64,000 nucleotides of DNA from Chloroflexota bacterium (lineage in GTDB: Bacteria; Chloroflexota; UBA11872; VXOZ01). A program made the translations under genes and the position numbers. A model generated the notes under the pieces. The model did not search any database. It had not been told where the DNA came from and saw nothing but the letters and a program-made list of their open reading frames with translations. Numbering within the stretch: position 1 is the stretch's first letter; each line of letters opens with the position of its first letter. The stretch spans positions 832,001 to 896,000 of the forward strand of contig OZ244922.1 of assembly GCA_965221905.1 (NCBI GenBank), read 5' to 3'. Below are positions 51,687-56,425 of the stretch, piece after piece.

Positions 51687-52397
51687 TTAGTCTATTAGGT
51701 CTGAGAGCGCCCTAATAGTCATATCCGGGCGAACTGTGGTCGCATCCGGCAGTCCGCCTCCCCGCGCATCCACCCAAACGGCGTAGATGCCCACATGCTG
51801 CGCGCCGCGAATATCGAACTCCAGGTTGTCGCCGACCATCCAGGCCTCGGTATGCCCTACGCTCAGAGACTCGATGGCGTGTTGGAAGGCTCTCTCTTCC
51901 GGCTTGCCGATCCCAAGCTCGCCCTCGATCTGAATGTGGTCGAAATACTTTGCCAGGGAGAACCGCTCTATCTTAGCTCGCTGCATCTCGGCACTGCCGT
52001 TTGTAACCAGACCCAAGTGGATGCCTGTCTTCTTTAGCTGTCGCAGCGTCTCGATGGCTCCCGGAAACGGTCGCATCGCCTCATCGCTGATGTGATTGTA
52101 CCGCTCACCCATGCGGGTTATGAGCCGGGAATCGGAAAAATCGAAACGAGCGAAGGCTGCAAGCAAGATGTCTCTCCTGGCTTGTAGCATGTTAAGGCGA
52201 CCCAGGCGCGCACGCTCCATGTCGCTCCAATACCAGTCTCGGGCTTGAAGTACGGCAGCCTGGAGCTCTTCTGCAGGCACGTCTCCGAGAATGTCGGCAA
52301 ACTCGCGGCAGAGCTGGAGCCACGCCAAGTCTGGATCGCTGTACCAGTCCAGAATCGTGTCGTCGAGATCGAGAAGAAGCACTTTGGGCAGTTTCAT
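51687..52397 (-). CDS. HAD-family hydrolase
   Basis: DLDDT, TNG, KP, VGDN..DI motifs. Confidence 0.9.
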   Translation of the reverse strand: MKLPKVLLLDLDDTILDWYSDPDLAWLQLCREFADILGDVPAEELQAAVLQARDWYWSDMERARLGRLNMLQARRDILLAAFARFDFSDSRLITRMGERYNHISDEAMRPFPGAIETLRQLKKTGIHLGLVTNGSAEMQRAKIERFSLAKYFDHIQIEGELGIGKPEERAFQHAIESLSVGHTEAWMVGDNLEFDIRGAQHVGIYAVWVDARGGGLPDATTVRPDMTIRALSDLID

Positions 52398-54248: not shown

Positions 54249-54356
54249 GTCGGCAAACTAATAGTAAAGCTGGAGCCAAGCTTCATCAGGGTCGCTGTAC
54301 GAGTCCAGAATCGTGTCGTCGAGATCGAGAAGGAGCGCTTTGGGTAGACTTTTCAT
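54249..54356 (-). pseudogene. Truncated 5' paralogue of the 51687-52397 HAD gene
   Basis: Translates MKSLPKALLLDLDDTILDSYSDPDEAWLQLYY*FAD versus MKLPKVLLLDLDDTILDWYSDPDLAWLQLCREFAD; upstream DNA also similar. Confidence 0.85.
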
Positions 54357-54521
54357 GCGGGTAATTATAGTTGCAGAGACAGGTAGAAGCCAGGGCAAAT
54401 GGGCGTTCTATCCGCCCCGCCAACTCGCAGTCCACTGACTCGAGCGCGTGGGTATCATTGTCCGGCTTGGTCGCATACGCCTTACCGAACCGGCCGGTCC
54501 TTTGGTATCGTTAGATGTCAA

Positions 54522-54836
54522 TCAGACCATAGGTAGACTAATCAACGCTTCCAAATCGTCGGGTTGCACGGTGTCGCTGGCGACTCTGTTGGCCCGAACC
54601 ACTCCGCAGGTCATGCACCGGTGGACCAACTGAAGACCCTTTTTCGAATTGTGTCTTATTGCTATCGGCTGCATCATGCCTTTACACGAAGAGGCCCTGT
54701 CCCCAGGCGCCATGTCGAGATGTTGCGAATAGAGGCACTGTGGGCAGTGGTTTCGGTAGCTTCCGTTCGTCAGGGGAACCACTTCCAATCCGCAGCGAAG
54801 GCATGTGAATGCCGTGTTTTTTCTGGCTCTGCTCAC
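54522..54836 (-). CDS. RNHCP domain protein
   Basis: FTCLRCG..YRNHCPQCLYSQH.D..PGDRAS.C.G.M.P..HRC..CG. Confidence 0.9.
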   Translation of the reverse strand: MSRARKNTAFTCLRCGLEVVPLTNGSYRNHCPQCLYSQHLDMAPGDRASSCKGMMQPIAIRHNSKKGLQLVHRCMTCGVVRANRVASDTVQPDDLEALISLPMV

Positions 54837-54837
54837 A

Positions 54838-54878
54838 CCTGATCTCCTTAATCTGAGTTGTCAGATCAAGAGATCAGG
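54838..54878 (-). promoter_or_regulatory. 18-bp hairpin sequestering the Shine-Dalgarno (AAGGAG) of the RNHCP gene
   Basis: Minus strand CCTGATCTCTTGATCTGA-CAAC-TCAGATTAAGGAGATCAGG, ending just before the GTG start. Confidence 0.75.
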
Positions 54879-55131
54879 GTTCCGTTTGCTCTTACCTAGG
54901 CTTCCAGGCTTGGCTGAGTCATTGACTGATTCGCCGTCGTTCCTTTGGGGTCAACGGCTACTTCCGGTTCCACCTTCAACGGGGCTTCTTCCATCCCCGC
55001 ATCCGAACCACGGCCGACTTTGTTCGTCTTTGTATCGGCCACTGTGGGGCACCCGTGGTACGCATTGCCCGTCCGGCACCCCCCACCGGTATGTGTTCTC
55101 TCAGCCTCACTGGCTTCGGCGTCGTCCCCCG
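54879..55131 (-). ncRNA. Candidate large structured cis-regulatory RNA in the RNHCP leader
   Basis: Purine-rich minus-strand sequence with consecutive stems (54895-54908, 54933-54958, 54980-54999, 55008-55047, ~55047-55070); no minus-strand ORF in the track. Confidence 0.55.
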
Positions 55132-55167
55132 TCAGGCGTGAGCAGAGTTAGTGTTTTGGCGGCTCAA
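55132..55167 (-). CDS. Putative leader peptide MSRQNTNSAHA
   Basis: Perfect AAGGAGG (55174-55180), 6-nt spacer, TTG start, TGA after 11 codons. Confidence 0.55.
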   Translation of the reverse strand: MSRQNTNSAHA

Positions 55168-55516
55168 CTATTGCCTCCTTTTTGGCTTTAAGAGCTTCGA
55201 ATAGCCGTTGGATCCCAGCTATGCAGCAGACCCATCGGCAAAGCAAAGTTTATCAGAAAACTCGCTACAGAAGATATCATGAGCGGTCAGTCTGCGTGCA
55301 CGCTTGCCGGAAAAAACCAAGAGAAGGTGAATTGATGGTGTCGTTCTTGCAGCATTCGGATATACTGCACTGTGCAGCGCTGCACCGACCTTGCAAAGTC
55401 AAGCAATAGTAAAGTGTGCCAGTTATGAGTCTTGTTGGCACATTGCGGGATTGAATGAATGGCAACTAGCGCTGCCTAATCGGTCCCTTGACAGGAAAGC
55501 GAAAAAGGAAAGAGTG

Positions 55517-56425
55517 ATGGTATCTCTAACGTACGATGCCGAGAATAGCGTTTACGACTTTGAGACTTCTGAATTGAAAGGTTCCCTGCGGGCGCAGTCG
55601 CCGGATCCGCAGGTGGATATTCGGCACGGGATTAGTCAGCTGGTGCACAAGCCGAGCGGGGTCTCCATCATTCATCCCAAGTATTCGGCGCTCAATCTCT
55701 TTCGGCTGTTCGCGACGCATACGGGTCTGGGCGAACCGCGTCTGTTCGAGCGCACCGTAAGTGTGGACGGCGACACGCTGGTCGTGAATTGGGGCCCGGC
55801 TGATGAGCACTTTGCCAGCATTGAGGCGCGCTATCAGGTCAGGGAACCCAATCTGATCGACCTGACGATCACGGTGTGCGCCGAGGCCACGTACGAGAGC
55901 TACGAGATATTTCTTTCCAACTACTTCGATCCGCCGCTGCTGGCGCACGTCTACCTGGCCACCGACCGCTACACTCGCGAGCCGGGGGCCGAGGAGCTTG
56001 TCGCGCCCCAGGAGAACCCCATCTTCAAGGGCATGGGGCTTGTGTATACGCGGGATGCGCATGCGGCGCGGCGCTGTGTGGACGGCCGCTGGGAGCGCAA
56101 GGAGATGGGGCATCCGACCGCGCAGTTCCGACCCCAGCGCGAGTACGCCGTGCCCGTGGCGTTTCAGGCCGATATGGACAAGCGGGTGGCCGCGGTGGTG
56201 ATGTCGCGGCCCCAGGACTGCTTTGCCGTCACCAGCGGGTACAACACGGACGATCCCGAAGACGCCTGGAAGGTGCAGAACCCGCTTTACCTTTCGCTGT
56301 TCGGCAGCGACTTTGTGCCGGGCACGGTGCGCACGGCGCACGTGCGGCTGGCAATAACGCCGCTGGATGACGCAATGTCGCAGCCGCTGGCGCTGTACCG
56401 GCAGTTTCTCGCGGAGACAGAATAG
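55517..56425 (+). CDS. Hypothetical protein, beta-rich
   Basis: Long ORF with host-like codon usage; no motif recognised. Confidence 0.7.
   Translation: MVSLTYDAENSVYDFETSELKGSLRAQSPDPQVDIRHGISQLVHKPSGVSIIHPKYSALNLFRLFATHTGLGEPRLFERTVSVDGDTLVVNWGPADEHFASIEARYQVREPNLIDLTITVCAEATYESYEIFLSNYFDPPLLAHVYLATDRYTREPGAEELVAPQENPIFKGMGLVYTRDAHAARRCVDGRWERKEMGHPTAQFRPQREYAVPVAFQADMDKRVAAVVMSRPQDCFAVTSGYNTDDPEDAWKVQNPLYLSLFGSDFVPGTVRTAHVRLAITPLDDAMSQPLALYRQFLAETE

Follow-up and report, generated by a model that had tools for sequence, protein, structure and literature searches.

A leader resembling the core of the 16S rRNA 3' major domain precedes an RNHCP gene and may act as its translational operator

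In a 64,000-nt stretch of DNA from a Chloroflexota bacterium (contig OZ244922.1, positions 832,001 to 896,000 of the forward strand; hereafter the window), a gene of the RNHCP family is preceded on the minus strand by a leader of about 350 nt (about 55183-54829). This leader is composed of a short upstream open reading frame (uORF), a multi-helix domain of about 250 nt in which no credible open reading frame (ORF) was found, and a hairpin that buries the Shine-Dalgarno (SD) sequence of the gene. We found that the leader is conserved upstream of RNHCP genes in distant bacteria and that its central domain is, judged by sequence likeness, a miniature of the core of the 3' major domain of 16S rRNA (helices 28-30 and 41-43), with a short cap replacing helices 31-40. 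We propose that the leader is a cis-acting translational operator that works by 16S rRNA mimicry, is coupled to the uORF and is most likely bound by the RNHCP protein itself, a reading to which we give a probability of roughly 45%. The gene and the parts of its leader are the following:

55183-55219, minus strand: zone in which contigs from RNA libraries end, possibly the 5' end of the transcript (a weak hint only)
55174-55180, minus strand: SD sequence of the uORF, AAGGAGG; an SD-like motif stands before the uORF start in 51/59 homologous leaders
55132-55167, minus strand: uORF of 11 codons with a TTG start, MSRQNTNSAHA; its TGA stop (55134-55132) abuts helix P1
55132-55145, minus strand: 5' strand of helix P0, CUGCUCACGCCUGA; last five uORF codons and stop
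55127-55131, minus strand: 5' strand of helix P1, CGGGG, pairing with 54879-54875; together with 55124-55123 (pairing with 54884-54883) it closes the whole domain
55109-55113, minus strand: 5' strand of helix P2, CCAGU, pairing with 54909-54904
55100-55106, minus strand: 5' strand of the helix 28 mimic, GGCUGAG, pairing with 54918-54912 (CUCAGCC)
55046-55089, minus strand: 5' strand of helix 29 (55089-55085), helix 30 mimic (55082-55075 with 55053-55046) and cap
55013-55039, minus strand: truncated helix 41 mimic, GCCGAU/GUCGGC (stem 55039-55034 with 55018-55013), with an ACAAA-type loop
54979-55007, minus strand: GUUCGGAU junction (conserved), then the helix 42 mimic (55000-54995 with 54984-54979); within the part that aligns to the 16S rRNA of the same genome
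54933-54971, minus strand: GGAA junction, 3' strand of helix 29 (54968-54964), AGUA and helix 43 mimic (54958-54953 with 54938-54933)
54875-54931, minus strand: return strands of helix 28 (54918-54912), P2 (54909-54904) and P1 (54879-54875), with a variable hairpin (54901-54894) and the conserved AACGGAACC
54838-54878, minus strand: hairpin burying the RNHCP SD sequence AAGGAG (54849-54844); 18 bp with one bulge, -25.1 kcal/mol
54829-54842, minus strand: 3' strand of helix P0, UCAGGUGUGAGCAG, including the GTG start codon (54836-54834)
54836-54522, minus strand: RNHCP gene, 104 amino acids, GTG start, PF12647

The 356-nt leader was predicted to fold at -135.3 kcal/mol, compared to -113.4 +/- 6.0 for its shuffles (z -3.63), none of 100 shuffles being equal to it. 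A protein-based scan of species genomes gave 80 RNHCP loci, distributed over Chloroflexota, Actinomycetota, Bacillota, Planctomycetota, Zixibacteria, WOR-3, Gemmatimonadota and others. When the window leader was used as nhmmer query, matches were found at 64 of these 80 loci, always just upstream of RNHCP. By running RNAalifold on 41 leaders, we obtained 58 predicted pairs with compensatory changes in 44 of them. A covariance model (R1) built from 36 leaders, with 303 positions and 57 pairs, gave full-length matches (154-295 bits) ending at the RNHCP start at 63 of the 80 loci and in at least six phyla. Two further loci (L075 and L041) had partial matches and 15 had no credible one, including L091, which has no upstream sequence. 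In a 69-row alignment to R1, double (compensatory) changes were seen for 45 of the 57 pairs, and 96.2% of the cells were paired against 79.4% in shuffles (0 of 500 as high) and at most 47% with slid partners, counts that are inflated by the fitting of this alignment (A5) to the model structure and that include a 16S row and four weak rows. By helix, compensation was found for three of five pairs in P1 (helix 1 of the consensus, 95.5% paired), six of six in the helix 28 mimic, 5/5 in helix 29, 7/8 in helix 30, 6/6 in helix 41 and 6/6 in helix 42, while P2 was paired in 100% of the cells with a C-G to U-A change at its outer pair in 15 sequences. The GGA of the GGAA junction was invariant (36/36 sequences).

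An earlier, sequence-only reading of the window had proposed a large structured RNA leader, undescribed or poorly described, at 54838-55180, which is nearly the whole element as placed here. The homologues and the compensated pairs agree with that proposal, and so do the Rfam scans of the window, which gave no match at the gathering thresholds and none at E <= 10 over 54700-55450. Three of the four stems it had drawn (GCCGAU/GUCGGC, GCGGGG/CCCCGU and GCCGUU/GACGGC) recur in the comparative consensus with compensatory changes, but two other pairings did not hold. First, the positions of the CCUGG/CUAGG stem (54908-54895) are paired in no more than 18-23 of 36 sequences, whereas CCUGG finds a partner in the distant upstream CCAG (55113-55110) in 35-36 of them, with 12 swaps from C-G to U-A. 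Second, in the long-range CCGAA/UUCGG pair three of the five positions pair in 14-19 of 36 sequences, with no compensation.

The likeness to 16S rRNA reached an Rfam threshold in some relatives of the window leader. Of 20 related loci scanned with Rfam, eight had a leader that scored 51-68 bits on the bacterial or archaeal small-subunit (SSU) rRNA models, whose gathering score is 50. These matches are partial, running from model positions about 880-925 to 1323-1387 with some 270 positions deleted in the middle. In the alignments, helices 28, 29 and 30 are followed by 0-4 nt in place of the ~270 positions of helices 31-40, and beyond this cap the leader passes through a truncated helix 41, then helix 42, then the 3' strand of helix 29, helix 43 and finally the 3' strand of helix 28. 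Nearly every letter of the single-stranded junctions in the model is retained. In one leader (L095), Rfam aligned the helix 28 segment to the helix 28 strands of the SSU model. Altogether the leader spans about 190 nt of the SSU model and not the full domain set of ~1.5 kb. Within the window, the stretch 54933-54971 aligns to the model consensus GGAauCGCUAGUAaucG...CgguGAAU, and a blastn comparison with the 16S rRNA of the same genome gave 47 of 69 identical positions over helices 41-43 (68%, E 1e-5). R1 matched both 16S genes of this genome (43.3 bits, E 2.6e-11), and 44 of the 53 columns conserved in >=90% of the leaders carry the same base in its 16S rRNA. The true 16S genes lie at C1:1927659-1929189 and 2436217-2437747 and score 1420 bits. 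In five other complete genomes R1 gave further, weaker matches (48-61 bits), which are probably their 16S genes.

Compared to the 16S 3' major domain (RF00177/RF01959), the leader therefore has helices 28, 29, 30, 41, 42 and 43 in the same order and shares the junction strings ACA.UGG, ACAAA, GUUCGGA, UGAAG, GGAA, AGUAAUCG and CGGUGAAU. It differs in that it lacks helices 31-40 together with the outer end of helix 41, P0, P1 and P2 are added (no 16S counterpart of P1 or P2 was found), the stems diverge from those of the host 16S rRNA and the whole is single-copy and inside an mRNA; the window copy also stays below every threshold of the Rfam SSU models. The GGAACCGGAAGTAGCC motif, which the sequence-only reading had linked to leaders before ribosome-related genes, is the leader copy of a conserved 16S stretch (Rfam consensus GGAauCGCUAGUAaucG). 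An RNA of riboswitch or ribozyme size had also been suggested, but we found no evidence of a new small-molecule aptamer or ribozyme: the domain being a miniature of 16S helices 28-30 and 41-43 points to a protein-binding operator, and none of the leaders in the 20 related loci matched a riboswitch or ribozyme. The sole non-rRNA match in these loci was a molybdenum-cofactor (Moco) riboswitch elsewhere in L063, from Dehalococcoidales (L063:3858-3978, RF01055, 77.9 bits), which lies ~1 kb downstream of RNHCP and is unrelated.

The leader is rare among relatives and appears to travel with its gene. With R1, exactly one full-length copy was found in this genome and in each of the five other complete genomes. 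A blastn search of this genome and 60 relatives found it single-copy at home and elsewhere only in one genome, G003, which is also the other one of the 2/61 genomes (this one included) with an RNHCP protein above the cut-off. No R1 match at E <= 1e-20 was found, under strict filters, in 150 other genomes sampled from the phylum, and blastn gave no match to the leader in plasmid and phage collections. Among 16 other genomes of the genus, 15 have no RNHCP and lack the cassette of leader and gene (window 54409-55498). Its flanks lie 188-245 nt apart in 13 of the 15, compared to 1,090 nt in the window, which indicates that leader and gene arrived together as a cassette of about 1 kb. No protein family was common to the neighborhoods of the RNHCP loci.

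Between the window and G003, identity is 96.9% in the structured core but 89.4% in the RNHCP coding sequence (CDS) and 90.3% in the upstream DNA, so that the non-coding core is the most constrained part. The cap carries an extra insertion of 18 nt (window 55054-55074) seen only in the window and G003, and most of their few differences fall within it. These data leave next to no room for the idea that the leader is a decayed, functionless fragment of a 16S gene, to which the partial SSU matches of the relatives might have pointed. In at least six phyla, and always before RNHCP, the leader lacks the same parts of 16S rRNA and has the same added helices, the helices are kept by compensatory changes in sequences unlike the host 16S rRNA, and the core is more conserved than the CDS that adjoins it; we consider this explanation refuted by the full-length model matches across loci, the compensated pairs and the core identity with G003. 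Stems unlike those of the host 16S rRNA, a covariation of their own and the same deletions in all phyla together argue for a maintained mimic rather than a decayed rRNA gene.

We then looked at the two elements that frame this domain. A uORF was scored when it had an SD-like motif, an ATG, GTG or TTG start, 8-15 codons and a stop 1-12 nt before the G-run of P1. Such a uORF was present in 51 of the 59 leaders with enough upstream sequence, compared to 1.2 +/- 1.0 in shuffles (maximum 4, 200 shuffles); L034 (duplicate of L033), L045 and L104 (failure of the anchor pattern), L057 (short contig) and L075 (partial match) were left out of this count. Among the eight misses, G003 has a 1-nt deletion that extends the frame to 19 codons, and in the other seven, read by eye, the expected start position is taken by CTG in four cases and by ATT in three. 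Conservation of the peptide does not extend across phyla; what is kept is its length and the place where it ends. At the other side, the SD-sequestering hairpin has a median of -24.4 kcal/mol over 61 leaders, with weak values for L110 and L092 that come from a misplaced anchor. Both the AAGGAGG with its 11-codon TTG uORF and the 18-bp hairpin before the GTG had been seen in the sequence-only reading.

The uORF and the RNHCP start are also predicted to pair with each other. In the minimum free energy fold, P0 is a helix of 14 bp (one G-U) that encloses the whole region and sets the start GUG opposite a CAC codon of the uORF (duplex in the window -32.0 kcal/mol, z -6.5), and pairing between the 5' flank and the RNHCP initiation region has a median of -23.6 kcal/mol over the 61 leaders. 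P1 and P2, with their invariant internal loops, join the mimic to the expression platform. P0, P1 and the SD hairpin converge in the predicted fold on a three-way junction, where the lowest 4-5 bp of the hairpin would compete with P1 and the inner part of P0. Such a junction would bring the uORF stop within a few nt of the RNHCP start, with the ~250-nt domain looped out.

The RNHCP start codons themselves are mostly weak. At 63 loci we counted 21 ATG, 21 ATC, 17 GTG and 2 TTG, the 2 remaining ones being mis-registered. All 21 ATC starts are in actinobacterial records (L046, L048, L058, L065-L070, L075, L080, L083, L085, L088, L089, L092, L093, L097, L103, L105 and L106), mostly at locus position 2501-2503, and they stand at normal spacing from a GGAGG SD sequence; no in-frame ATG, GTG or TTG was seen near them. 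A conserved ATC is a very unusual start codon. Weak start codons fit a coupled and tightly limited translation of RNHCP, and their combination with a double sequestration and a patchy distribution suggests a protein that must stay scarce.

A uORF and an occluded SD sequence had been read as the logic of a ribosome-stalling attenuator. According to this explanation, antibiotics, starvation or faulty termination would slow or stall ribosomes on the uORF, and these would hold P0 open and thereby switch RNHCP on. The role of the rRNA-like domain would be that of a scaffold for folding or of a target mimic for a small molecule that binds the 30S head. Part of this logic stood up, as uORF and hairpin are conserved, the SD sequence and uORF keep a fixed distance from the structure and the 3' half of the uORF pairs with the RNHCP start. 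The patchy, accessory distribution of RNHCP (2 of 61 genomes, 0/150 of the phylum, insertion as a cassette) is also common for resistance genes. The part that did not stand is the peptide, whose lack of conservation between phyla argues against a peptide-specific, antibiotic-dependent stall. Moreover, the anti-SD arm lies ~250 nt downstream of the uORF, so that a ribosome stalled on the uORF would not free the SD sequence, a scaffold role would leave a 97%-identical domain of 250 nt with preserved 16S junction nucleotides unexplained, and we know of no antibiotic that needs only helices 28-30 and 41-43. The leader shares with attenuators of the erm/cat type a short SD-led uORF that pairs with the downstream start region and a sequestered SD sequence, but it has no conserved peptide, places a 250-nt rRNA-like domain between uORF and hairpin and precedes a gene without known resistance function. 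We therefore regard control by stalling as quite improbable.

The leader is present in RNA libraries, although carry-over of DNA is possible. Metatranscriptome contigs from four runs of two studies (54717-55219, 54734-55183, 54605-55218 and 54773-55183) span the leader and enter the CDS by 60-230 nt. Their upstream ends fall at 55183 in two runs and at 55218/55219 in two, and 55220-55380 was uncovered in all of them, which proves nothing alone. This is a weak hint of a transcript 5' end near 55183-55219, just before the SD sequence of the uORF, as contigs cannot prove a start; a promoter scan returned 0 sites. These RNA data also bear on whether the structured RNA could itself be the product, that is, a stable mini-head RNA released from the mRNA by cleavage in the long P0 and hairpin stems, as 16S rRNA is from its precursor, and forming a particle with RNHCP and/or head proteins, for example as a decoy or sponge. 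P0 does enclose the domain like the 16S processing stalk, and in one run the leader contig had a mean depth of 11.9 versus 3.5 for the distal-CDS contig, a measure that cannot rank parts of a gene. However, the contigs are continuous from the leader into the CDS, we saw no sign of processing, and the uORF, the SD hairpin and the pairing of the start codon are hallmarks of translational control. An RNA product is thus very unlikely.

The nearest precedent for such control is the str operon of E. coli. According to PMC10931766, the stretch between rpsL and rpsG contains a structure resembling rRNA to which uS7 binds, and this binding shuts down rpsG translation only where it is coupled. This precedent led us to a proposal in two steps, coupling through the uORF and then a block by the bound mimic. 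The leader would have three parts: a short and efficiently initiated uORF whose end codons pair with the RNHCP start codon (P0); a self-contained mimic of the 30S head core of ~250 nt, carried on P1 and P2 and starting right after the uORF stop; and the hairpin that hides the RNHCP SD sequence. Ribosomes translating the uORF would melt P0 and expose the RNHCP start, or be handed over to it, and RNHCP translation would thereby be coupled to that of the uORF. A protein that recognizes the mimicked part of 16S rRNA would bind the mimic, lock the junction and stop the coupling. As the module is self-contained and moves with RNHCP, we infer that RNHCP is the most economical ligand; it would then be a 30S-head-binding factor held low through negative feedback. 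We put forward more tentatively the full statement of this idea, in which RNHCP would dock on the 30S head core (helices 28-30/41-43), its mRNA would bear a miniature of that subdomain as operator, and a ribosome ending the leader peptide would pass to the RNHCP start across the ~250-nt loop unless RNHCP has bound the mimic. RNHCP might act in hibernation, protection or modification, or be an accessory ribosomal factor, and would be kept very scarce.

The two systems share a structure like the uS7 region of 16S rRNA between an upstream frame and a gene (for the str operon, PMC10931766), and here the RNHCP start is paired to the end of that frame. They differ in several respects. The upstream frame is a uORF of 8-15 codons instead of rpsL and the gene is RNHCP instead of rpsG. 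With six helices and ~250 nt, the mimic greatly exceeds the E. coli structure in size; in relatives it scores on an Rfam SSU model, and it occurs in many phyla. The leader does not lie at rpsL-rpsG, and binding of uS7 here would be by analogy.

An alternative with the same architecture is that uS7 is the ligand and that uS9, uS13 and uS19 may bind after it. An imbalance between the synthesis of rRNA and of ribosomal proteins, or a failed assembly of the 30S head, would then be signalled by free head proteins. These would switch the translation of RNHCP by binding the mimic, and RNHCP would be an assembly-stress response factor. The helices and junction nucleotides that the leader retains are the ones from which the 3' major domain is nucleated, a step begun by uS7 with uS9, uS13 and uS19, and uS7 is the one protein for which repression of a coupled translation by way of an rRNA-like structure in the mRNA is already known (PMC10931766). 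Conservation in the leaders extends to the loop of helix 42, which is similar to its Rfam consensus; this suggests more than one protein contact. On the other hand, the leader moves between phyla with RNHCP as a self-contained cassette, a better fit to self-contained feedback, and the conserved P1 and P2 with their invariant internal loops, which have no 16S counterpart that we could find, may be an RNHCP-specific site. In addition, no similar structure was found with R1 elsewhere in the genome, the region upstream of rpsG included: beyond the leader, R1 found the 16S genes and one chance match inside a CDS. To our knowledge, no ribosomal protein controls a non-ribosomal gene in this way. We consider uS7 the main rival ligand, though a less likely one than RNHCP. 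The chance match is a recurrent helix-42-like stretch of 35 nt (C1:3210897-3210931, 17 bits, present in several genomes of the genus), which we rejected because it lies antisense within a 294-amino-acid ORF and has no Rfam match.

The RNHCP protein matches Pfam PF12647 over residues 8-90 with 114.3 bits (E 2.6e-33), above the curated cut-off of 24 bits, and the RNHCP motif is invariant in 30/30 aligned homologues. It is net basic by residue count, and two Cys/His clusters were read as zinc ribbons. An AlphaFold2 model reached a mean predicted local distance difference test score (pLDDT) of 87.8. Foldseek found no solved relative of it in the PDB, the top match (E 0.039) being zinc-ribbon subunits of RNA polymerase I, and a sequence search of the PDB gave no match below E 0.22. 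The NCBIfam scan returned only sub-threshold zinc-finger matches and the ESM Atlas search nothing usable. Longer, fused forms of RNHCP were not found, which is weak evidence, and we found no functional study of the family in the literature.

Several observations weigh against the proposal that RNHCP binds its own leader as a 30S head mimic. First, the searches with Pfam, NCBIfam, fold, PDB sequence and ESM Atlas revealed no detectable relationship of RNHCP to ribosomal proteins or assembly factors. RNA binding by RNHCP is a supposition, and its net positive charge is our own residue count. Second, the mimicked 16S region is what we take to be the classical uS7 site, which makes uS7 an equally natural ligand. 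Third, P0 stands out clearly from shuffles (z < -2) in fewer than half of the leaders (29 of 61; median z -1.75). Fourth, the SD hairpin is predicted to be closed in all conformers, with or without P0 and P1, so that melting P0 alone may not suffice for initiation and control could run in either direction. Fifth, the leader is absent from 14 of the 79 testable RNHCP loci, and the protein can thus do without it. Finally, besides the inflated pairing counts of the fitted alignment, the window itself has no Rfam match at E <= 10, and its 16S likeness therefore rests on blastn, R1, the conserved columns and homology to relatives that do match.

rRNA mimicry in leaders is a known principle. Leaders of ribosomal protein genes such as that for uS8 in the spc operon likewise carry at a translation start a cis element copying an rRNA site (PMC10931766). 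The known ones copy one helix or junction and control ribosomal protein genes, whereas in the RNHCP leader the copy extends to an entire subdomain with several junctions and their nucleotides, the gene that follows has no known ribosomal product, and a conserved uORF is added. What seems undescribed is the combination of a whole multi-junction subdomain, recognizable by Rfam, with a non-ribosomal gene in many phyla and a conserved uORF. Rfam 15 has no family for this leader, as judged by the window and 20 related loci, and we found no description of it in the literature, although supplementary tables of motif-discovery papers could list such an element.

If the proposal is true, no known mRNA would carry a larger or more literal mimic of rRNA, and RNHCP, a family without known function, would be given its cellular target; the mimic supplies a testable one, the 30S head core. 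A six-helix piece of 16S rRNA without helices 31-40 is maintained by selection in at least six phyla, as a unit predicted to fold on its own, and could serve as a natural minimal 3' domain for studies of head assembly and of binding by the uS7 family. The leader extends rRNA mimicry from single helices before ribosomal protein genes to a whole subdomain before a non-ribosomal gene, joined here by a uORF of conserved position and, among actinobacteria, by ATC as start codon.

For annotation, such leaders yield partial SSU rRNA matches that can be mistaken for rRNA fragments, and an antisense ORF over the leader (54805-55191, plus strand, 128 amino acids, with similar ones at 47 loci) could be mis-called as a gene. 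We rejected the latter as a by-product of RNA conservation, as single-base indels along the alignments do not hold its frame.

RNHCP genes without a leader occur in several settings. At Anaerolineales-type loci (L040, L042, L044, L051 and L053, also L047 and L071), a leaderless RNHCP lies between genes for proteins of ~545 and ~450 amino acids, read by eye as CTP synthase (pyrG, upstream) and enolase (downstream), and is an insertion into this housekeeping gene pair. The other leaderless loci are in unrelated contexts; in a Defluviitaleaceae genome (L077:1653-3644), the gene is flanked by those for an ABC-type ATPase and for a transporter of the CbiQ/EcfT type. Next to the cassette in the window, a protein of 302 amino acids is encoded divergently from it (55517-56425, plus strand); it is found genus-wide with 86-92% DNA identity and belongs to no Pfam family. 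Beside the cassette, 54258-54398 encodes a 46-amino-acid N-terminal fragment of a HAD hydrolase that resembles the start of an intact paralogue at 51687-52397.

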